Shown here: positions 15,711-24,910 of the stretch, piece after piece
Position numbering within the stretch: the stretch's first letter is position 1
Layout of the letters: the number at the start of each line of letters is the position of its first letter
Virus genome (UHGV): UHGV-0240527
Direction: 5' to 3' (one strand)
Length of the DNA: 64,000 bases
Origin: a virus
Position numbers and translations under genes: made by a program
Notes under the pieces: generated by a model
What the model was told of the DNA's origin: nothing
Seen by the model: only the letters and a program-made list of their open reading frames with translations
Databases searched by the model: none

Positions 15711-17126
15711 ATGAGCGAATTATTTAAACATGCGCACCTTCATGCAGGTCGAACTGAAAATGGTGCTGTAAACCATACTTCATCAATGTCTGCTCTTGTA
15801 GACTTTTACAAAGCTGCTGGTTCAAGCCGTAGCAATGTAGAAATCTTACCAGACTTGTTCTACAAAGCTTTGCGTGAGGATGTTGATGTTGCAGTTCGTA
15901 TTTTGCTTCATATGCGAGATGTACGAGAAGGTATGGGTGAGCGTAAAGCCTTCAGAACTGTTTTGCTTCAAGCAATTGAAGATAAAGTTTTAGAGCCTAC
16001 ACAGGTTCTTCGCATTATGGATAAGATTGCAGAACTTGGTCGTTTTGATGACTTCAAAATCTTCGTGGGTACTTGTTTCGAGACAGATGCCTTCAAACAT
16101 TTAGAAGCAGCATTACTAGACCCTGCAACAGCAGGTTTGGCGGCTAAGTGGTTACCACGAGTCAAACCACGTCATAAGCAGTTTGTAAAACGTTTCTGCA
16201 AGTTTGCCAACTTGAGCGAGAAAGAGTACCGCACACTGTTATCTGCACTATCTGATACAGTTGAGCAAAAAATCTCTGCTAATGAGTTTGGCAAGATTGA
16301 CTACAGTAAGGTTCCCTCACTTGCTGCTGCACGTTACCAAAAACTGTTTAACCGTAAGGATGGAGAACGTTACAAAGCTTACATTGAGTCCTTATCAAAA
16401 GGTGAGGCTAAGATTAATGCTGGTGCTGTTTACCCATACGATGTGATTAAATCTGTCAAGCATGGTAATGCAGATGTTGCTAATGAGCAGTGGAAAGCAC
16501 TACCAAACTGGATGGCAGAAGGTGAAAACATCTTGTGTATGTCTGATGTATCAAGTTCAATGTCTTGGGTGAATTTTGGCTCCATTACTGCTCTGGATAT
16601 TGGTGTATCACTTGCCTTGTATGTAGCAGAACGCAATACAGGTTGCTTTAAGAATGAGTTGATGGTTTATTCAACAAACCCTCACTTCATCGAACTGAGT
16701 GGTGATTTACGAAACCGTCATCGTCAGGTGATGCGACACGTTGAATATGGCTCAACTAACTTACAAGCAGCTTTTGACCGCATTCTTGAGACAGGCAAAA
16801 GAAACAACTTGACTCAGAAAGATATGCCAAGTAAGCTTATCATCTTCTCCGATATGGAGTTTAATCAGGTTGATGGGGCTAACGGTCGTACAAACTTTGA
16901 AGCAATTCAGAGTAAGTACAAAAAAGCTGGATATGAGATGCCACAACTGGTATTCTGGTACTTAGCAAACCGTAATGGTACTTGCGAAGTATCTGTTAAG
17001 GATAACGGTGTAGCAATGGTATCAGGGTTCTCTCCAGCCACTTTAAAAGCTCTGCTTGGTGGTGAGAAGTTTGACCCAATCAGTGTAATGCTCAAAGCAG
17101 TAATGATTGACCGTTATATCTGGTAA
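15711..17126 (+). CDS. vWA-domain protein with Ro60/TROVE-like architecture (candidate RNA-binding protein)
   Basis: C-terminal MIDAS-like DxSxS (MSDVSSSMSW) and downstream FSDMEF; about 270-aa helical N-terminal region; family assignment is from architecture only. Confidence 0.45.
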   Translation: MSELFKHAHLHAGRTENGAVNHTSSMSALVDFYKAAGSSRSNVEILPDLFYKALREDVDVAVRILLHMRDVREGMGERKAFRTVLLQAIEDKVLEPTQVLRIMDKIAELGRFDDFKIFVGTCFETDAFKHLEAALLDPATAGLAAKWLPRVKPRHKQFVKRFCKFANLSEKEYRTLLSALSDTVEQKISANEFGKIDYSKVPSLAAARYQKLFNRKDGERYKAYIESLSKGEAKINAGAVYPYDVIKSVKHGNADVANEQWKALPNWMAEGENILCMSDVSSSMSWVNFGSITALDIGVSLALYVAERNTGCFKNELMVYSTNPHFIELSGDLRNRHRQVMRHVEYGSTNLQAAFDRILETGKRNNLTQKDMPSKLIIFSDMEFNQVDGANGRTNFEAIQSKYKKAGYEMPQLVFWYLANRNGTCEVSVKDNGVAMVSGFSPATLKALLGGEKFDPISVMLKAVMIDRYIW

Positions 17127-17291: not shown

Positions 17292-17368
17292 CTCTGTTTA
17301 GCTCAGCTTGGTAGAGCGTTCCGTTTGGGGCGGTAAGGCCGGAGGTTCAAGTCCTCCAACAGAGACCA
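17292..17368 (+). tRNA. tRNA-Pro (anticodon UGG)
   Basis: manual cloverleaf: 7-bp acceptor CTCTGTT/AACAGAG, T-loop TTCAAGT, anticodon loop TTTGGGG, CCA encoded. Confidence 0.65.
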
Positions 17369-17375
17369 AATTAAT

Positions 17376-17453
17376 GTTCCAGTAGACAAAATGGTAAAGT
17401 CACCACTCTTTCAAAGTGGATATCTGAGGGTTCAAATCCCTTCTGGAACGCCA
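17376..17453 (+). tRNA. tRNA-Glu (anticodon UUC)
   Basis: 7-bp acceptor GTTCCAG/CTGGAAC, anticodon stem CCACT/AGTGG, loop CTTTCAA, CCA encoded. Confidence 0.7.
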
Positions 17454-17543
17454 GTTTTGACAGAAGACCAATTACAGCAAACTTAATCTACTCATCTGAA
17501 AGTTAATCGGACAAAGAAGATATTTGGTCTGGTCATTAAGAAT

Positions 17544-17620
17544 TGCGGGTATAGAGAAAGGGCGTCTCACATGTCTCATTAGCATGGTATCGGCAGGTTC
17601 GACTCCTGCACCCGCCTCCA
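17544..17620 (+). tRNA. tRNA with CAU anticodon (Met, initiator or Ile2); non-canonical features
   Basis: T-arm GCAGG/CCTGC and 6 of 7 acceptor pairs with 1:72 mismatch; anticodon loop CTCATTA; 3-nt 8/9 linker. Confidence 0.45.
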
Positions 17621-17703
17621 AATTTACAGAAGACCGTTTACAGCAATATTTATTAAATTTTTAGCGGAAAAATTGAAAGATACGGTCTGGTAATACTAAA
17701 CAT

Positions 17704-17780
17704 GGTTAGGAAGCACATAAGGTATGTGCGGTCGCCTGTTAAGCGAATGGCACAGGGTTCGAATCCCTGACTAACCGCCA
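17704..17780 (+). tRNA. tRNA-Asn (anticodon GUU)
   Basis: acceptor GGTTAGG, D-stem GCAC/GTGC, anticodon loop CTGTTAA, T-loop TTCGAAT, CCA encoded. Confidence 0.7.
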
Positions 17781-17849
17781 AATTTAGGAGAGAAGTGATT
17801 GCTCACCGATTTGTAAGGTGCAAGTCCTTAGCCTGAATAGAAATTAAAT

Positions 17850-17937
17850 GTGTCGTTATCCCGTAGATGGTAGCGGTGGGGACTGTAAATCCCTTGTCAT
17901 TGAGACTCGGTAGGTTCGACTCCTACACGGCACACCA
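17850..17937 (+). tRNA. tRNA-Tyr (anticodon GUA), long variable arm
   Basis: acceptor GTGTCGT/ACGGCAC, anticodon stem GGGGA/TCCCT, loop CTGTAAA, 88 nt, CCA encoded. Confidence 0.7.
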
Positions 17938-17942
17938 ATAAA

Positions 17943-18019
17943 GGCTATGTAGTTTAACTGGAGAAAATACTCCCCTGTCACGGGAGATGATGTGAGTTCA
18001 AGTCTCATCGTAGCCGCCA
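17943..18019 (+). tRNA. tRNA-Asp (anticodon GUC)
   Basis: acceptor GGCTATG/CGTAGCC, anticodon stem CTCCC/GGGAG, loop CTGTCAC, CCA encoded. Confidence 0.75.
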
Positions 18020-18448
18020 ATTTTGAGAGGGCTGTTTAGCCCATCCCTTAAAGAGTTCTTACGAGTATTCTTTAAGGGAGCAGAAGACCAAATACAGCAA
18101 GAATGTATGAAATTTCAAGCCAATTTAATTTTGAAAATTTAAAACTTGGTCTGGCTCAACAAATTTACAGAAGGCCGTTTACAGCAAAACTTAAACAATC
18201 TATTTCTCCGGTAAAGAAAAGGCGAAGGTTCGATTCCTTCACTCGGCAGATGTCGAGTTGGTGTAATGGTAGCACTTAAGATGATAAACAACGGTCTGGT
18301 AATTACCTTTGTAGATAAGTTATTAAGCTTACTTGTGAGTATGCGACCACAAAGGGTGAATGGGTAAATTCTAGATTTAAACCCAAAAAGGCACATCGCT
18401 ACAGACCTTAAGCAAGTCTGGGTAGCTTATCTACAAAGATAATTTAAT

Positions 18449-18524
18449 GGAAGTGTAGCAGAATGGTGATGCGGCAGACTTTTAATCTGACAGGCGATGG
18501 GTTCGAATCCCTCCACTTCTACCA
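18449..18524 (+). tRNA. tRNA-Lys (anticodon UUU)
   Basis: acceptor GGAAGTG/CACTTCT, anticodon loop CTTTTAA; T-stem imperfect; paralog of the CUU Lys tRNA. Confidence 0.6.
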
Positions 18525-18528
18525 ATAT

Positions 18529-18605
18529 GGTTCAGTCGCAGATAAGGTAATGCAAGGGTCTCATAAGCCCTATGAATGTGGGTTCGATTCCCATCTGAAC
18601 CTCCA
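18529..18605 (+). tRNA. tRNA with CAU anticodon (Met or Ile2)
   Basis: perfect 7-bp acceptor GGTTCAG/CTGAACC, anticodon stem AGGGT/GCCCT, loop CTCATAA, CCA encoded. Confidence 0.7.
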
Positions 18606-18606
18606 A

Positions 18607-18682
18607 GCTGGTATAGTTAAGAAGGTTATAACACTCCCCTGATAAGGGAACATCGGTGGTTCGATTCCACCTACCAGTACCA
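18607..18682 (+). tRNA. tRNA-Ile (anticodon GAU)
   Basis: acceptor GCTGGTA/TACCAGT, D-stem GTTA/TAAC, anticodon loop CTGATAA, T-arm GGTGG/CCACC, CCA encoded. Confidence 0.75.
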
Positions 18683-18697
18683 ATTTCAATAAAGTTG

Positions 18698-18726
18698 TTG
18701 ACATTGAGATGTGACTACTTTATAGT
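18698..18726 (+). promoter_or_regulatory. sigma70-type promoter inside tRNA array (TTGACA, 17 bp, TATAGT)
   Basis: hexamers and spacing read directly. Confidence 0.55.
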
Positions 18727-18930
18727 AACCTTAGTTTTCGTTGCGTAGCGTCTATTTTGCAAATTTAAAATAAATGCAAACGACAATGTTTTTCTGGCAG
18801 TAGCTTGATAGGCTAAACACCAGTGAGGTCTTCCAATCCCTCATCAAAGAATTTGGCGTACTCGCCCACGGTATGATTAATAAGGTGGGCATCTTTAAGG
18901 GCTTTCTAAGAGAGTCTTTAAAGATAATTA

Positions 18931-19012
18931 CGGGGCGTATCTCAGCGGTCTTCTAAACCGCCGTTAACCGAGTAAGTGGAGTATGCGGGTTCGAGTCCTG
19001 CCGCCTCGACCA
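18931..19012 (+). ncRNA. tRNA-like element: perfect acceptor stem and T-arm but no canonical D-arm; internal hairpin with loop CTTCTAA (UCU)
   Basis: 7-bp acceptor CGGGGCG/CGCCTCG, T-arm GCGGG-TTCGAGT-CCTGC, CCA encoded; body cannot be folded into a standard cloverleaf. Confidence 0.4.
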
Positions 19013-19026
19013 ATTTTGGAGAAATC

Positions 19027-19374
19027 ATGAAAACTTGTATTAGGTGCAAACTTAGCAAGGATGAAAATGATTTCTACATGAAAGATGGTAGGAGAACTCA
19101 TTCATACTGTAAAAAGTGTGTTAATGAGCAAACCATAGAAAGACAAAGAGCACTTAAACTCTTAGCTATTGAGTACAAAGGTGGGGTTTGTCATGATTGT
19201 GGTAAGAAGTATCATCCAGCAGTGTATGACTTCCATCATTTGAATCCTTCAGATAAAGATTTTAACATTGGTCATAGGAAAAGCCTTAAGTTCTCTCAAG
19301 AACTAAAAGATGAACTTGACAAATGTGTTTTGCTATGTTCAAATTGCCATAGGGTAAGACATGCAAAATATTAG
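19027..19374 (+). CDS. HNH family homing endonuclease
   Basis: motifs CxxC..CxxC, DFHHLNPSDKDFNIG and CSNCHRVRH typical of HNH nucleases; start moved to ATG with GGAG RBS (track start is an upstream GTG inside the tRNA-like element). Confidence 0.7.
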   Translation: MKTCIRCKLSKDENDFYMKDGRRTHSYCKKCVNEQTIERQRALKLLAIEYKGGVCHDCGKKYHPAVYDFHHLNPSDKDFNIGHRKSLKFSQELKDELDKCVLLCSNCHRVRHAKY

Positions 19375-19511
19375 TTAGCAGATTACTTAGACGACCTTAG
19401 CGGGTCTTCCTGTAGGGAGGTGGTCTGTATCTCATGTTTTCCAGAACATGTAAATAATCTGAGAAGGGGCTTTACAGTGTTGAGATAATACGGTAAGCTT
19501 CGAATTATAGT

Positions 19512-19594
19512 ATGGGACGATGTTAAGACTCTAAGGCATGAGCAACGGCTTCCAACACCGTTTCAAAGGGGTTCAACTCCTCCGTCCCATGCCA
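19512..19594 (+). ncRNA. tRNA-like element with aberrant anticodon arm (9-nt loop CTTCCAACA containing UCC); possible degenerate tRNA-Gly paralog
   Basis: perfect 7-bp acceptor ATGGGAC/GTCCCAT and T-arm with CCA, but non-canonical D region and loop size. Confidence 0.4.
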
Positions 19595-19607
19595 AAGTCT
19601 TATTAGG

Positions 19608-19695
19608 GGTAGGTAGCGGCTAATGGTAGCCAAACTGTCTTGAAAACAGTTGCCACTGTAGAGATACGGTGAGGGTTCGACTCCTTTACTTACCG
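19608..19695 (+). tRNA. tRNA-Ser (anticodon UGA), class II
   Basis: acceptor GGTAGGT/ACTTACC, anticodon stem ACTGT/ACAGT, loop CTTGAAA, long variable arm, G73; CCA not encoded. Confidence 0.65.
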
Positions 19696-19852
19696 CCTAA
19701 TAAGATTTAAAGCCAAGCTTCATTCGGATGTTGCTTTGGTATCCCTCGTGTATTGTCGTACACACTGATAAAACACCTAGTAGGTGTCACGGAGAAGAGA
19801 TAATATCAAGCTCTCCAAAGGTTCTAGTCACCGGATTAAACAAGACTATGCA

Positions 19853-19875
19853 AAGACCTATTTAGGTCTTTTTAG
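19853..19875 (+). terminator. putative intrinsic terminator within tRNA array
   Basis: AAGACCTA..TAGGTCTT hairpin followed by TTTT. Confidence 0.45.
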
Positions 19876-19952
19876 AGGGCTTCTAAGGTTATTACAGCTT
19901 GTTGTGGAACCTTGTTGCTTAGGTTCTTAGAAGTTCTCTAAAAAGATTTAAT

Positions 19953-20029
19953 GCACCTATAGCCCAACTGGTAGAGGCAGCAGACTTAGAATCTGCTCAG
20001 TGTGAGTTCGAATCTCTCTAGGTGTACCA
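19953..20029 (+). tRNA. tRNA-Leu (anticodon UAG) with short variable arm
   Basis: acceptor GCACCTA/TAGGTGT, anticodon stem GCAGA/TCTGC, loop CTTAGAA, A73, 77 nt, CCA encoded. Confidence 0.6.
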
Positions 20030-20036
20030 AATTAAT

Positions 20037-20112
20037 GCAGGTGTAGCAGAATGGTTATGCGGCTGACTCTTAATCAGTAAGACGATGGGTTCAATTCCCT
20101 CCACCTGTACCA
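20037..20112 (+). tRNA. tRNA-Lys (anticodon CUU)
   Basis: acceptor GCAGGTG/CACCTGT, anticodon stem GCTGA/TCAGT, loop CTCTTAA, CCA encoded. Confidence 0.65.
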
Positions 20113-20118
20113 AACATT

Positions 20119-20194
20119 GGGGATGTAGTTTACATGGTTAAAACATAAGTTTTGCAAACTTAAGTACAGGGTTCAATTCCCTGCTTCTCCACCA
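20119..20194 (+). tRNA. tRNA-Ala (anticodon UGC)
   Basis: G3:U70 wobble pair present in acceptor; D-stem GTTT/AAAC; anticodon stem TAAGT/ACTTA, loop TTTGCAA; CCA encoded. Confidence 0.7.
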
Positions 20195-20200
20195 ATTAGT

Positions 20201-20275
20201 GCATCCATAGTTTAAACGGGAAAATTACAGTCTTCCAAACTGAGGTTGAGGGTTCGATTCCCTCTGGATGCTCCA
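20201..20275 (+). tRNA. tRNA-Gly (anticodon UCC)
   Basis: perfect acceptor GCATCCA/TGGATGC, T-arm GAGGG/CCCTC, anticodon loop CTTCCAA, CCA encoded. Confidence 0.7.
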
Positions 20276-20281
20276 AACAAT

Positions 20282-20358
20282 GCTGCTTTCGTATAATTGG
20301 CTATTACACATCCCTTGTAAGGATGGAAATGCAGGTTCGAGTCCTGTGAGCAGCACCA
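20282..20358 (+). tRNA. tRNA-Thr (anticodon UGU)
   Basis: acceptor GCTGCTT/GAGCAGC, anticodon stem CATCC/GGATG, loop CTTGTAA, CCA encoded. Confidence 0.75.
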
Positions 20359-20454
20359 ATTCAGAGGTCAAGTGAAAGACCGCTTTGAGTCAACTGAAGA
20401 CCGTAACAAATACCACGGAGTTGAGTTAGCGGCACAACTTCAGACCTCTTTCAT

Positions 20455-20529
20455 ACTCGCTTAGTTTATATGGTAAAACATCACCATTACAAGATGAAGA
20501 AAAAGGTTCAAGTCCTTTAGTGAGTACCA
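20455..20529 (+). tRNA. tRNA-Val (anticodon UAC)
   Basis: acceptor ACTCGCT/AGTGAGT, D-stem GTTT/AAAC, anticodon loop ATTACAA, T-arm AAAGG/CCTTT, CCA encoded. Confidence 0.7.
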
Positions 20530-20530
20530 T

Positions 20531-20608
20531 GTTCCAGTATCCCAATTGGCAGAGGATGCAAGCTCAAACCTTGTATTAGTGACGGTTCGAATCCGTCTTG
20601 GAACACCA
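20531..20608 (+). tRNA. tRNA-Leu (anticodon CAA) with short variable arm
   Basis: acceptor GTTCCAG/TTGGAAC, anticodon stem GCAAG/CTTGT, loop CTCAAAC, A73, 78 nt, CCA encoded. Confidence 0.55.
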
Positions 20609-20613
20609 ATTTT

Positions 20614-20686
20614 GCAGGATTAGTTCAAATGGAAAGAGCAACAGTCTACGAAGCTGTTAATAGGGGTTCGAATCCCTTATCCTGCG
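20614..20686 (+). tRNA. tRNA-Arg (anticodon ACG)
   Basis: perfect acceptor GCAGGAT/ATCCTGC, D-stem GTTC/GAGC, anticodon loop CTACGAA; CCA not encoded. Confidence 0.7.
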
Positions 20687-20706
20687 CTAGATAAAAAGGT
20701 GATACT

Positions 20707-20949
20707 ATGCAAACATTAACAGTAGTTGAACATGAAAACTGTGAGAGTATTGAGTTTGTCAGGGTCATTGGTGTTGAACACCACATTTTCTTAAAAGTGG
20801 GATACTTATGTGACCCCGCTAGAGTAGAAAGATTTATACGTGATTGTTTTGGTGGTAGACATCTGAAGAGTGTTATTTTTGAGACAGTTTTACCAGAAGG
20901 TTTAGAAACGAATAATAACATTTACCTCCTTACGAGGATTAGACAATGA
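20707..20949 (+). CDS. hypothetical protein (embedded in tRNA array)
   Basis: ORF track; AAAGGTGA RBS. Confidence 0.45.
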   Translation: MQTLTVVEHENCESIEFVRVIGVEHHIFLKVGYLCDPARVERFIRDCFGGRHLKSVIFETVLPEGLETNNNIYLLTRIRQ

Positions 20950-21503
20950 GATACTTAAAGTATGCTTCATGGATTTTCTTAGCTTTGTTAGAGCCATTTG
21001 CAGCAATCTTAGCAGTTATCTTAGCACCTTTTGTAGTTCCATTCTACAGTGAGAAGAAAGGACACTTACCTTTCGGGTTCAGATGGATGGAGACATATGA
21101 CAACCCAATTGATGGTGATGAAGGTCACGTTAAAAGATGGGCTAATATTAGATGGATTGGTAAGCTGGGTGTCTACATGCAGAGAGTTGGATGGCTCTGG
21201 AGAAACAAAGCTTATAACTTCTCTTACCATGTATTAGGAAGAGATGTAAAAGATGTTACTAAGTGGAAAGGTAATATCAACGTAAGTTCTGACCCCGAAG
21301 ATAATCAGACAGGTTATCTCCTAATGTGGAACAGTAATGCTTGGGGATTATTCGCTTTTATCCCATCAATTAAAATCTTTGGTAAACAATTTTACTGGAG
21401 AATTTATATTGGATGGAAACTAAAAAGTGTTGTCCCAGAAGAAAGAGCATTCTCAAGGGAAAGAGTTATGTTGGCATTCTTTATTCATCCACTGAGAAAG
21501 TAA
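20946..21503 (+). CDS. hypothetical membrane protein (embedded in tRNA array)
   Basis: ORF track; hydrophobic N-terminus WIFLALLEPFAAILAVILAPFVVPF; start overlaps upstream stop. Confidence 0.5.
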   Translation: MRYLKYASWIFLALLEPFAAILAVILAPFVVPFYSEKKGHLPFGFRWMETYDNPIDGDEGHVKRWANIRWIGKLGVYMQRVGWLWRNKAYNFSYHVLGRDVKDVTKWKGNINVSSDPEDNQTGYLLMWNSNAWGLFAFIPSIKIFGKQFYWRIYIGWKLKSVVPEERAFSRERVMLAFFIHPLRK

Positions 21504-21511
21504 AGATTTAA

Positions 21512-21587
21512 AGGGGATTAGTTTACAAGGTTAAAACCTCGGTCTTTGAAATCGAAGAAGTTGGTTCAATTCCAACATCCCCCGCCA
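21512..21587 (+). tRNA. tRNA-Gln (anticodon UUG)
   Basis: unpaired 1:72, G73, D-stem GTTT/AAAC, anticodon stem TCGGT/ATCGA, loop CTTTGAA, CCA encoded. Confidence 0.7.
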
Positions 21588-21589
21588 AT

Positions 21590-21668
21590 GCTCCATTACT
21601 CCAATTGGCAGAGAGGCCAGACTTAAAATCTGTGTTATGTATCGGTTCGAATCCGATATGGAGTACCA
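21590..21668 (+). tRNA. tRNA-Leu (anticodon UAA) with short variable arm
   Basis: acceptor GCTCCAT/ATGGAGT, anticodon loop CTTAAAA, T-arm ATCGG/CCGAT, A73, 79 nt, CCA encoded. Confidence 0.55.
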
Positions 21669-21673
21669 AATTT

Positions 21674-21749
21674 AGCGGTATAGCATAACTGGCAATGCAG
21701 CAGCCTCTGAAGCTGTCCTATTAAGGTTCAAATCCTTATGCCGCTGCCA
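21674..21749 (+). tRNA. tRNA-Gln (anticodon CUG)
   Basis: acceptor AGCGGTA/TGCCGCT, D-stem GCAT/ATGC, anticodon stem GCAGC/GCTGT, loop CTCTGAA, G73, CCA encoded. Confidence 0.7.
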
Positions 21750-21780
21750 CTTCTAAGGATTCTTGCGAGAGTCCTTAAAT

Positions 21781-21856
21781 GTGGCCTTATCATAAATGGT
21801 AATGACCCATGCTGTGAACATGGTCTATACGGGTTCAAATCCCGTAGGTCACCCCA
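21781..21856 (+). tRNA. tRNA-His (anticodon GUG)
   Basis: acceptor GTGGCCT/AGGTCAC, D-stem TCAT/ATGA, anticodon stem CCATG/CATGG, loop CTGTGAA, C73, CCA encoded. Confidence 0.7.
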
Positions 21857-21861
21857 ATTTA

Positions 21862-21936
21862 TAGTCCAAGTAGCTTATATGGTTAAAGCGCGTGTCTGAA
21901 AAACATGAGAAGAGGGTTCAAATCCCACTGGACTAC
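21862..21936 (+). tRNA. tRNA-Phe (anticodon GAA)
   Basis: perfect acceptor TAGTCCA/TGGACTA, anticodon stem CGTGT/ACATG, loop CTGAAAA; 3' terminus ambiguous. Confidence 0.6.
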
Positions 21937-21954
21937 CAATTTCAAAGGTGCTTA

Positions 21955-22689
21955 ATGAAAGAGATGACAGAACAAGGTAAGGAGATTTTTAATCTCTTAA
22001 AAACCGGTAAAGGGTTCTCTAACCCACTGATTACTGGTGCAGCAGTTCTCGGTGGAACCGTAGCTGCTTCTACATCACTTGTAAGCTCTATTAGTTCTGT
22101 AACAGACCCTACAATGAAGGAGAAACTTGTTGCTGCTGGACTTACAACAGTCCTTCTAAACAGCTTTACAACAAGCCTTACAAGCACTACAGCAACTACT
22201 AAAACTCTGACAGACTACGGTCAAAAGTCTATTGATGAGTTTTCATCACGTATGCAGGTAGCAAAGGGATACTCCAATGTTATGGGTGCAGCAGGAGAAC
22301 AAGTTGGTTGTACACCATTCAGTGGTATTATGGGTGTTGCTACAGAGTATGGTCAAAAAGCTATTGACATGATGAACAGTACACTGGATAGTGTTAATGG
22401 TGTATTAAGTGACTTACAAGATGCTATTGATAAGGGTCTTGATACTGTTTCTGATTTAGCTAATCAGGCTGTTAGTAAGATTAATGAAGGTATTTCAAAG
22501 ATTACAGCTTATGCAGATGAAGTTGTGCAGATGATTGAAGAAGAAGCTGCCCTTATTGCAGAGTACCTTAAAACGAATATCAATGGGTTCTTAGCAGGTA
22601 TCTTACCAGACTGGTTTGATGATGCTTGTAAAACTGGTGTAATTGACACTATTGCAACACCAGAAATGAAGAACGCATTACAGAAATAA
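21955..22689 (+). CDS. hypothetical Ser/Thr-rich protein (embedded in tRNA array)
   Basis: ORF track frame; start moved to ATG 21955 after AAAGGTG RBS because the track start overlaps tRNA-Phe. Confidence 0.5.
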   Translation: MKEMTEQGKEIFNLLKTGKGFSNPLITGAAVLGGTVAASTSLVSSISSVTDPTMKEKLVAAGLTTVLLNSFTTSLTSTTATTKTLTDYGQKSIDEFSSRMQVAKGYSNVMGAAGEQVGCTPFSGIMGVATEYGQKAIDMMNSTLDSVNGVLSDLQDAIDKGLDTVSDLANQAVSKINEGISKITAYADEVVQMIEEEAALIAEYLKTNINGFLAGILPDWFDDACKTGVIDTIATPEMKNALQK

Positions 22690-22691
22690 AT

Positions 22692-22784
22692 GGAAGATTA
22701 ACCCTAAAAGGTAAGGGAGCAGTTTGCTAAACTGCCAGTAGCTGAGAAATCGGTGTACCAGTTCAAGTCTGGTATCTTCCTCCA
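22692..22784 (+). tRNA. tRNA-Ser (anticodon GCU), class II
   Basis: perfect acceptor GGAAGAT/ATCTTCC, anticodon stem GCAGT/ACTGC, loop TTGCTAA, about 21-nt variable arm, CCA encoded. Confidence 0.7.
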
Positions 22785-22788
22785 ATTT

Positions 22789-22864
22789 GAATCCGTGACA
22801 GAAATGGCTATGTGCCTGTCTGCAAAACAGGTTTATAAGGGTTCGAGTCCCTTCGGATTCTCCA
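22789..22864 (+). tRNA. tRNA-Cys (anticodon GCA)
   Basis: perfect acceptor GAATCCG/CGGATTC, anticodon stem CCTGT/ACAGG, loop CTGCAAA, U73, CCA encoded. Confidence 0.75.
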
Positions 22865-23308: not shown

Positions 23309-24910
23309 ATGGACTTAAATGCTGTTAAGCAGAAGCGAGTGGAAGATGTTAGGAAAGTCCTAGCTGGAGAGTTGGGGCTTTCTGATGAAGTAAAAGAAAT
23401 TATCAAATCATTCGGTAAAGACCCCTCTAAATTCCTTCCAACTCAAATTCTGACTTTATTAAGATACACACCAGACCAAGTTAGACTTATCTTCAAATTG
23501 ATGACTGATAAGAATTATGTAGCCCCTCAGCCGGGTTCTCAAGAGGTCTTTTTAAATACTAATGCTGACTTGGTTCTCTATGGTGGTGCTGCTGGTGCTG
23601 GTAAAACTGCTGCATTGTTAATGGATTCTTTAAGGTTTATTGAAGACCCTAACTATAATGCTGTATATTTCCGTCGAAATACAACACAGCTACAAGGTGG
23701 TTTATGGCCTGCTGCAAAGAAACTATTTGGTAAGTTTGGTGGGGTTCCTCACGAGCAGAAGATGACTATCACATTCCCTTCTGGGGCAACTATCAAGTTT
23801 ACTTATTTAGAACTTGAAAAACACGCTGAAGGTCATCAGGGTATTGAATACTCAGCTATTTACTTTGACGAAGGTACACACTTCTCTGCTTCACAGATTT
23901 CATACCTACAAACACGTCTGCGTTCTGGTGCTGAAGGTGATTCATACATGAAGATTTCTATGAACCCAGACAGAGACCACTTTATTTACGATTGGGTAGA
24001 ACCTTTCTTAGATGAAGAAGGTTATCCAGACCCTGAAAAGTGTGGTCGTATTCGTTGGTATGTAATGAATGACGGTGTGATGGTTTCTGATTGGGAGAGA
24101 GACAAGATTCTTGAAATGTTCCCTCTTGAGATTCCTCAAACATACACCTTTATCTCTGGTACGATTGATGATAACCCAATCCTTGACTTCTTAGAGCCTA
24201 AGTACCGTGGTAAGTTGGAAAACAACACCCCTGTAAACGTTGCAAGACTTCGTTTCGGTAACTGGAAGGCTCGTGCAGAAGGTTCAAACTATTGGCAAAG
24301 ACAATGGTGTGAGATTGTTGATTCACTCCCAGAAGATGTATTCGATGTTAGAGCATGGGACTTAGCAGCAACTTTACCATCTGAGATTAACCCTAATCCA
24401 GACTGGACAGCAGGTGTTAAGATGGGTAAATCTAAAAAAGACGGTTGCTATTATATCATTGATGTAGTAAGATTTAGAGATAGACCCTCTGGAGTCGAAA
24501 CACAAATTAATTTGACTGCTGAAAGTGACGGTAAGCGAACTGGTATTTTTATCCCTCAAGACCCAGGCGCTGCTGGTAAATCCTACGCAACATCCCTCAT
24601 CAGGAAACTTGCAGAGAAAGGTTATCGTGCAAGAGCTAAACCAACAAATAAAGATAAAGTTACCCGATTTGCGGGGTTTTCTGCTGCTTCTGAAGCCGGA
24701 CTTGTAAAAGTCTTGAGAGGTAGTTGGAATGAAGCTTATTTTCAAGAGCTTGAAGGCTTTTGTGGTGATGGTAAAACTAAAGATGACCAAGTGGATGCTA
24801 CCAGTGATGCTTTCAACAGTCTTAACGAAGTTAAATTATTCAAGCCACCATCAATGGGTGCTCACACAGACTTAGTGAGAGGAAACCCATATGAGGGGCT
24901 TAGACGTTGA
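23309..24910 (+). CDS. terminase large subunit
   Basis: Walker A-like LYGGAAGAGKTAAL near N-terminus; position directly before the portal gene; start moved to ATG with GGAGG RBS. Confidence 0.8.
   Translation: MDLNAVKQKRVEDVRKVLAGELGLSDEVKEIIKSFGKDPSKFLPTQILTLLRYTPDQVRLIFKLMTDKNYVAPQPGSQEVFLNTNADLVLYGGAAGAGKTAALLMDSLRFIEDPNYNAVYFRRNTTQLQGGLWPAAKKLFGKFGGVPHEQKMTITFPSGATIKFTYLELEKHAEGHQGIEYSAIYFDEGTHFSASQISYLQTRLRSGAEGDSYMKISMNPDRDHFIYDWVEPFLDEEGYPDPEKCGRIRWYVMNDGVMVSDWERDKILEMFPLEIPQTYTFISGTIDDNPILDFLEPKYRGKLENNTPVNVARLRFGNWKARAEGSNYWQRQWCEIVDSLPEDVFDVRAWDLAATLPSEINPNPDWTAGVKMGKSKKDGCYYIIDVVRFRDRPSGVETQINLTAESDGKRTGIFIPQDPGAAGKSYATSLIRKLAEKGYRARAKPTNKDKVTRFAGFSAASEAGLVKVLRGSWNEAYFQELEGFCGDGKTKDDQVDATSDAFNSLNEVKLFKPPSMGAHTDLVRGNPYEGLRR

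Follow-up and report, generated by a model that had tools for sequence, protein, structure and literature searches.

A non-canonical tRNA-Trp-like gene in the tRNA clusters of Felix O1-like and other phages

We analyzed a tRNA-like gene at positions 19512-19594 (+ strand) of a 64,000-nucleotide stretch of the virus genome UHGV-0240527, the whole of which is referred to below as the window. The surroundings of the element are 97-100% identical to Felix O1-like phages (Felixounavirus, Ounavirinae), and it sits in line with the genes of a tRNA cluster, 13 nt before a tRNA-Ser. In the window, ARAGORN places 25 tRNA genes within 17292-22864 of the + strand; these cover 19 amino acids, tryptophan alone being missing. 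The element spans 83 nt including an encoded CCA end (AUGGGACGAUGUUAAGACUCUAAGGCAUGAGCAACGGCUUCCAACACCGUUUCAAAGGGGUUCAACUCCUCCGUCCCAUGCCA), and its sequence, conservation and covariation, together with a call in the metazoan-mitochondrial (-mt) mode of ARAGORN, lead us to describe it as a non-canonical tRNA-Trp(CCA)-like RNA. It is probably the phage's own functional tRNA-Trp on a non-canonical scaffold, and very probably belongs to a class of 8/4 tRNAs (8-bp acceptor stem, 4-bp T stem) with a long connector between acceptor stem and D hairpin, a class that is conserved, specific to phages and hitherto without annotation.

The two strands of the acceptor stem, AUGGGACG at 19512-19519 and CGUCCCAU at 19583-19590, are each 8 nt long and are followed on the 3' side by the discriminator G73 (19591) and the encoded CCA (19592-19594). 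The initial annotation, made from the sequence of the window, had rightly recognized a perfect 7-bp acceptor stem (AUGGGAC/GUCCCAU) and the CCA; a G8-C pair lengthens this stem to 8 bp. A single-stranded connector of 9 nt (AUGUUAAGA, 19520-19528) joins the acceptor stem to a D-like hairpin at 19529-19542, whose CUC/GAG stem (19529-19531 with 19540-19542) carries the 8-nt loop UAAGGCAU with a conserved GG at 19535-19536. Canonical tRNAs have 2 nt at the position of the connector, and the element departs from a canonical D arm (2-nt connector, 3-4 bp stem, 7-11 nt loop with G18G19) in its 9-nt connector; the claim that no standard D arm can be drawn in the central region holds. The anticodon arm (19544-19562) consists of an AACGG/CCGUU stem plus a C.A mismatch of 19549 with 19557, below a 7-nt loop UUCCAAC (19550-19556) in which the anticodon CCA occupies 19552-19554. 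This arm is ordinary apart from the mismatch, C31.A39, at the base of the loop, and an extra pair at 26-44 extends its stem. A 5-nt variable loop UCAAA (19563-19567), invariant in Ounavirinae, leads to the T arm (19568-19582), with a 4-bp GGGG/CCUC stem that includes one G.U pair and a loop UUCAACU that matches the usual TTCRANY pattern. The T arm had been called flawless, which is true of its tRNA-like loop but not of its stem, whose fifth position would be A.C, because that C pairs with G8. The layout is therefore 8/4 and not the canonical 7/5, while the anticodon arm, the T loop and the discriminator plus CCA have canonical features.

Standard gene finders pass over the element. ARAGORN in default mode makes no call at 19512-19594 and finds no tRNA-Trp in the 64-kb window; the element is likewise not called with the -ps90 option, and thresholds lowered to 60-80% yield spurious calls only. 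Rfam agrees with this, a search of 7 kb with its tRNA model (RF00005) giving no match to the element at E ≤ 5. The -mt mode of ARAGORN, by contrast with the default, places an mtRNA-Trp(cca) at 19513-19590, and C.A closes its 7-nt loop. A relaxed automated fold, proposed earlier as a check, thus recovers a 7-nt loop and a tryptophan anticodon, but the structure that it draws is not that of a canonical tRNA. The earlier view of a real tRNA-like gene with a non-standard core that finders miss is borne out by these searches. Tryptophan is also the sole missing amino acid, according to ARAGORN, in other Felix-like loci and in those of Pectobacterium phage Arno162 and Yersinia phage P778. The published accounts agree: the genome paper on Felix O1 counts 22 tRNAs and is silent on Trp, and the Sf14 paper reports 26 tRNAs for 19 amino acids.

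The element is conserved in related phages far beyond chance, with blastn matches in 311 phage records, 233 of which cover at least 80% of the query, and no tRNA annotation lies under it among the listed matches that cover most of the element. We aligned 14 distinct versions from Felixounavirus, Suspvirus, Mooglevirus, Arno162 and P778. Under the proposed cloverleaf, 99.7% of its cells are paired and eight pairs have changed on both sides, against none in every slid control. The anticodon stem occurs as AACGG/CCGUU, GUAAG/CUUAC or GUAGG/CCUAC, with double changes at four of its five pairs, and the D-like stem as CUC/GAG or CAC/GUG, its middle pair having switched from U-A to A-U in 6 of the 14 versions; a C-G pair of the same stem is U.G in one. 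The first T-stem pair goes from G-C to U-A in Sf13 and Moogle and to A-U in Hafnia phage Zyzzx, and in the acceptor stem of Ounavirinae pair 1-72 is A-U, G.U or G-C and pair 2-71 is U-A or C-G. Within the subfamily there is no variation in the anticodon loop, G73, the CCA end or the connector. The connector AUGUUAAGA is identical in 14/14 versions, and the unpaired stretch that includes it, GGGACGAUGUUAAGA, is the most conserved part of the element. Searches of IMG/VR with GGGACGATGTTAAG and with GATGTTAAGA...GCNNNNNCYTCCAA returned only Ounavirinae copies and chance matches to coding DNA, and blastn of the element against E. coli genomes gave no match.

A covariance model built on the element (R1), together with blastn, revealed members of the class outside this group. 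They include Zyzzx and Escherichia phage Av-05, the Vequintavirinae SSE121, BIS47 and a large number of Klebsiella phages (at least 26 records of Klebsiella phages contain the class), the Stephanstirmvirinae PD114 and PHB05, and a dozen or more metagenomic contigs of IMG/VR. None of these genes is annotated as a tRNA in any record inspected, and no canonical tRNA-Trp was called in any tRNA-cluster locus examined of the wider class. Members line up with the tRNA genes around them, at a spacing like that of tRNAs; in GEC_vB_MG, for example, the gene occupies a 92-nt unannotated gap between tRNA-Glu and tRNA-Gln. In default mode ARAGORN recognizes 1 of 24 members and misplaces its 5' end, and the -mt mode reports Trp(cca) in 23 of the 24.

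An alignment of 18 diverse members also supports the architecture, with double changes at 19 of 24 pairs and a covariation score of 0.66 versus 0.09-0.12 in slid controls. All eight acceptor pairs have changed on both sides, and the eighth one (8-65; 19519 with 19583 in the window) is U-A in nine members, G-C in seven, A-U in one and U.G in one, being unpaired in none of the 18. RNAalifold, unaided, arrives at an acceptor stem of 8 bp, a T stem of 4 bp and the same anticodon stem. The class connector is 7-10 nt long, starts with an invariant A9 and contains UAA. The D hairpin usually has 5-6 bp and a UGG or CGG loop (e.g. UUGCAG-UGG-CUGCAA), is rich in covariation and abuts an anticodon stem of six "bp"; the variable loop measures 5-6 nt and ends with AA in nearly all members. 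The Felix-type copy, with its 3-bp D stem and 8-nt D loop, is the most reduced version of the class.

This pattern bears directly on the idea of a decaying paralog put forward in the initial annotation. A pseudogene, whether of a tRNA-Trp or of a tRNA-Gly(UCC), might be suspected from the rejection by standard tRNA finders, from the D stem of 3 bp and from mismatches at 31-39 and, when the element is drawn as 7/5, at 49-65. The last of these mismatches arises from the covarying 8-65 pair, every helix has been kept paired by compensatory changes across genera and subfamilies, and the anticodon loop, G73, CCA end and connector have stayed unchanged throughout Ounavirinae. Covariation thus largely refutes decay, a reading to which we would give hardly any credence. 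The suggested tie to glycine fares no better: the canonical tRNA-Gly(tcc) reported some 600 nt downstream does exist (20201-20275, 607 nt from the element), but the element has CCA at the anticodon position, the tRNA set of the phage misses Trp and no other amino acid, and R1 does not match the tRNA-Gly of the window at all.

The RNA carries identity nucleotides of the tryptophan type. Across the 14 Ounavirinae versions the loop and its flanks follow the consensus C|YUCCAAM|M, in which U, C, C, A and A are invariant, and the pattern U33-anticodon-R37 therefore designates CCA as the anticodon. A minimum free energy (MFE) fold of the single sequence gives as best Watson-Crick hairpin in the middle of the element AACGG/CCGUU with a 9-nt loop, CUUCCAACA. 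The same hairpin had been noted earlier for its 9-nt loop containing UCC; both are there, but the triplet at its centre, flanked by U on the 5' side and A on the 3' side, is again CCA. This anticodon, U33 and A37 are invariant in all class members. G73 is present in 18/18 aligned members and in further IMG/VR members, and the encoded CCA is invariant in the 18-sequence alignment, with one GCUA end and one poorly fitted candidate lacking CCA in the wider set. The first pair, A1-U72 in the window, is A-U in 13 members, G.U in three and G-C in two. The identity of a bacterial tRNA-Trp depends on its anticodon, on G73 and on the first base pair (PMC9976931), and the published identity nucleotides C34 C35 A36, G73 and, as a minor one, A1-U72 are all found in the element. 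The E. coli tRNA-Trp, whose sequence we confirmed in 5,426 genomes (median of one copy per genome), likewise has A1-U72, G73 and a CUCCAAA loop.

The alignment of the class also settles the nature of the 9-nt loop. The loop of the window copy looks 9 nt long because its closing pair is the C31.A39 mismatch. Among the 18 members this pair is C.A in 11, C.C in one, G-C in four, U.G in one and A-U in one; since six of them have a standard pair there, the 9-nt loop is a mismatch of certain lineages and not an expanded loop. No bases have been inserted, homologues with a standard closing pair have an ordinary 7-nt loop CUCCAAA, and the expanded loop proposed in the initial annotation cannot be maintained as a property of the family. 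This weakens the notion of a charged tRNA-Trp with altered decoding, which would read UGA as well as UGG (compare the D-arm Hirsh or the anticodon-stem variants) or four bases through a 9-nt loop. Variants of tRNA-Trp(CCA) whose anticodon stem has 4 bp do read UGA in E. coli (PMC13092985), the D region of the element is wholly remodelled and its loop is formally 9 nt in the Felix lineage; moreover, the next in-frame stop after TGA comes at a median of 3 codons versus 7 for TAA in window open reading frames (ORFs), a sample too small to interpret. But the known UGA readers lose the top stem pair 27-43, where the stem of the element is instead extended at its top; TGA is a normal stop in 15 of 80 window ORFs (≥ 70 aa), which lack long in-frame extensions; and the genomes are annotated with the standard code. 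Altered decoding of either kind therefore appears very unlikely to us. As a separate observation, the loop of Felixounavirus occurs in two forms, CUCCAAA and UUCCAAC, in which positions 32 and 38 (19550 and 19556 in the window) differ together; this could be a coupled change of a 32-38 pair.

A complementary distribution came from Erwinia phage phiEa21-4, a distant member of the same subfamily. Its tRNA cluster contains a canonical tRNA-Trp between tRNA-Gly and tRNA-Thr, and R1 detects no copy of the odd gene in 45 kb of this phage, cluster included, whereas in Arno162, P778 and other Felix-like phages the odd gene is present and the loci examined contain no canonical tRNA-Trp. The 15-nt anticodon arm of the phiEa21-4 tRNA-Trp, CGGCCUCCAAAACCG, recurs unchanged in most versions of the element, C31.A39 included. 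Of the ordinary tRNAs this tRNA-Trp is also the one that R1 scores best, with 39.3 bits, narrowly above the 38.5 bits of a tRNA-Arg of the window. The phiEa21-4 gene (24578-24653 of the locus) has its own irregularities: both ends of its anticodon stem are mismatched (U27.C43 and C31.A39), which leaves three Watson-Crick pairs, and its CCA is not encoded.

Outside phages the shape is almost absent. A search pattern for 8/4 Trp genes (A49 opposite A65) matched 21 stretches in IMG/VR and, in one genome of each of 185,579 bacterial and archaeal species, a single contig from a metagenome-assembled genome (MAG). This contig, JAEDOA010000088.1, is assigned to "Erysipelotrichaceae" and measures 6552 bp; it bears a dense cluster of 14 tRNA genes, one of them of the amber-suppressor type (anticodon cta), and has the look of phage DNA that was binned with the MAG.

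Other structures proposed for the central region were tried and dropped. A pseudoknot between A9-U10-G11 and C26-A27-U28 of the D loop is paired in 14/14 Ounavirinae versions, through two one-sided changes in one lineage, and is unsupported, with no counterpart in other lineages. A D stem in canonical register (U10-G11-U12-U13 with A30-G31-C32-A33) is contradicted by A33, which covaries with U51 (A-U, G.U, G-C), and by Mooglevirus, where U13-A30 becomes U.U. A tmRNA-like mini-ORF across the connector and D region (ATG TTA AGA CTC TAA) differs in length and end in Arno162 and has no tmRNA match. Inspected by eye across members, the connector and the variable loop show no consistent complementarity.

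If the element is a working tRNA-Trp, as we think probable from its sequence and its distribution, its course can be sketched as follows. Its transcription would be shared with the tRNA cluster and might start from a promoter-like sequence that lies 10-40 nt upstream, TTTACA-17 nt-TAAGCT at 19471-19499 (+), which is kept in the alignment of the flanks and reads TTGACA in Mooglevirus; the promoter scan also gave a weaker overlapping site, TTGAGA-17-AATTAT, at 19480-19508. RNase P would excise the transcript and 3' trimming would proceed to the encoded CCA. The 12 bp on which EF-Tu and the processing enzymes rely in the acceptor/T branch are kept in total (8+4), and the GG loop of the short D hairpin presumably docks on the T loop to form the elbow. 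The host tryptophanyl-tRNA synthetase would charge the RNA by recognizing G73 and C34C35A36, with a contribution of A1-U72, and the charged element would decode UGG. The analysis establishes the sequence, its conservation, the base-paired architecture and the Trp-type identity nucleotides; expression, charging and decoding are what we infer from the gene.

A number of observations count against such a role. The single-sequence MFE is ordinary (z = -1.56) and the D stem of the window copy has just 3 bp. On a 107-nt slice RF00005 finds nothing at E ≤ 10, and the best Rfam match is to tRNA-Sec (RF01852), with 16.9 bits for a threshold of 47. In the versions of Arno162 and P778 one base of the acceptor stem is bulged. 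That a canonical tRNA-Trp is lacking holds for the window and for the tRNA-cluster loci, where it was looked for. The E. coli enzymes tried failed to charge an 8/4 tRNA with an E-loop from soil bacteria, which has U73 and a GCU anticodon (PMC5389517). Lastly, the invariance of the connector could mean that it has a binding partner other than the translation machinery.

This last point leads to the possibility of a tRNA-shaped RNA that does not decode, such as a decoy or sponge for a tRNA-Trp nuclease or enzyme, a partner of a Ro-like protein in the manner of a Y RNA, or another regulator. The connector is more conserved than the stems, which vary among the 14 versions in which it is identical. 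Nine tRNA genes and 2.4 kb upstream of the element, the phage encodes a 471-aa protein homologous to a mycobacteriophage "Ro-like RNA binding protein", and bacterial Y RNAs contain tRNA-like modules (PMC4201824). At least one anti-phage system, the retron Eco2, has tRNA-Trp among its cleaved tRNAs (PMC12916289), and some irregular 8/4 tRNAs are charged yet unused in translation, or never charged. The Y RNA comparison, already raised in the initial annotation, is countered by the open acceptor stem with G73-CCA and the complete anticodon arm, both lacking in the Y RNA YrlA, and no Rfam Y RNA match occurs anywhere in the window. Moreover, Klebsiella, despite its numerous phage records with the class, is outside the ten commonest hosts of the Ro-like protein, and the two therefore appear not to co-occur strictly. 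As for a pure decoy, it fails to explain why the gene is present exactly where otherwise complete sets miss a canonical tRNA-Trp. We accordingly regard a non-decoding RNA as unlikely, though less so than altered decoding.

The 471-aa protein itself is encoded at 15711-17126 (+), just upstream of the tRNA cluster. It matches Pfam DUF2828 and DUF7788 and PHROG 850 ("RNA-binding protein"), shows 31-34% identity over its full length to the mycobacteriophage protein and is found in 710 phage records; phmmer against PDB sequences returned nothing.

Returning to a phage tRNA-Trp, one may ask what it would add to the single tRNA-Trp of the host. A possible, if doubtful, answer is that the Trp-only architecture specific to these large virulent phages of enteric bacteria (8/4, connector of 7-10 nt, Sec-like D hairpin stacked directly on a 6-bp anticodon stem) gives the phage something that the host tRNA cannot. 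If so, the gain could lie in withstanding a host nuclease or a defence system by which tRNA-Trp is cut, or in a changed decoding such as tuned reading of UGA, and the invariant connector would be a functional handle.

The tRNA cluster holds other unusual genes. A second cryptic tRNA-like gene, Arg(UCU), lies at 18931-19012 (+), with a good acceptor stem, A73-CCA and normal anticodon and T arms; UAUCUCA replaces its D arm and its variable region contains an insert of about 20 nt. The Rfam tRNA model gives it 31.7 bits and ARAGORN is silent. Between this gene and the Trp-like one, an ORF at 18976-19374 (+) encodes an HNH endonuclease (weak match to Pfam HNH). The ORF is present in some Felixounaviruses only, as blastn matches that cover query positions 1-371 include its 3' end and others start at 21. 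Where Felix-like phages lack the neighbouring HNH ORF, a canonical tRNA-Arg(tct) occupies this place, and the altered Arg gene therefore goes with the insertion of the homing endonuclease. The gaps of the cluster further gave sub-threshold Rfam matches at 18191-18241, 18624-18808 and 18740-18929 (+), to tRNA (22 bits), tmRNA_permuted (29 bits) and tmRNA (16 bits), which may be chance, remnants or other tRNA-like RNAs. A DUF7338 protein is encoded inside the cluster at 20946-21503 (+); its homologues, 58-78% identical, occur in phage contigs of 121-180 kb, near tRNA genes in several of them.

The consequences of a functional tRNA-Trp would reach beyond this locus. Felix O1 and its relatives and the rV5-like and phi92-like phages are well studied as typing, model or therapy phages, and their tRNA sets have been analyzed as devoid of Trp. 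If the element works as a tRNA-Trp, these sets are complete, and analyses of codon usage and tRNA adaptation that assumed a host-supplied Trp need correcting. It would also represent a natural fold with an 8/4 layout and a long connector that operates with the translation machinery of E. coli or Salmonella, which is of interest for tRNA engineering. The results also show a systematic failure of standard tRNA finders on a conserved class of phage tRNA genes. That a Trp-only shape recurs in several phage lineages unrelated to one another and is hardly ever seen in bacterial genomes may connect to anti-phage defences that target tRNAs.

Our literature search found no description of a phage 8/4 tRNA-Trp, which does not disprove that one exists. 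The closest known systems are those of Mukai et al. 2017 (PMC5389517), who described allo-tRNAs, phage (8/4) tRNA-Ser and tRNA-His, and an 8/4 form with an E-loop; according to the same work, 8/4 and 9/3 tRNAs undergo processing and charging in E. coli and EF-Tu delivers them there. The present class shares with these (8/4) tRNAs the 8-bp acceptor and 4-bp T stems, 12 bp together, and a location in phage tRNA clusters. Most of its members also resemble them in a long D stem with a loop of 3-4 nt, the D arm of (8/4) tRNAs being tRNA-Sec-like with about 6 bp and a tetraloop; the window copy departs from this with 3 bp and 8 nt. Like the E-loop form, it has extra unpaired nucleotides between the acceptor and D stems, a likeness of layout with the acidobacterial E-loop. 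It differs in its Trp identity (CCA, G73), Trp being unmentioned in PMC5389517, and in its hosts, since its carriers are virulent phages of enterobacteria and the earlier set comes from Acidobacteria or phages of Alphaproteobacteria. Unlike allo-tRNAs, it has a variable loop of 5-6 nt and no long arm.

The Y RNA YrlA has in common with the element a tRNA-like T arm, a D-like hairpin and a Ro-like gene nearby. The ends of YrlA, which is encoded beside the Ro60 gene, form a Ro-binding helix with the motif GNCGAAN0-1G, its "acceptor" is a closed stem-loop and it has no anticodon arm (PMC4201824). The element has, on the contrary, an open acceptor stem ending with GCCA and a full anticodon arm, and it contains neither a Ro-binding helix nor the motif. 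With tRNA-Sec (RF01852) it shares the 8-bp acceptor stem and an anticodon stem of six "bp", to which class members add a 6-bp D stem with a tiny loop; the branch of tRNA-Sec is nevertheless of 13 bp (8/5) and not 12 (8/4), its variable arm is long where the class has no such arm, and its anticodon is UCA instead of CCA. The canonical tRNA-Trp, as in E. coli trpT or phiEa21-4, differs from the element in the 7/5 layout, the 2-nt connector, the lack of the extra 26-44 pair and the 4-bp D stem (10-13 with 22-25), and ARAGORN and the Rfam tRNA model fail on the element. It is the same as the element in its anticodon loop of CUCCAAA type (UUCCAAC in the window), in A1-U72 and G73, and in its T loop.

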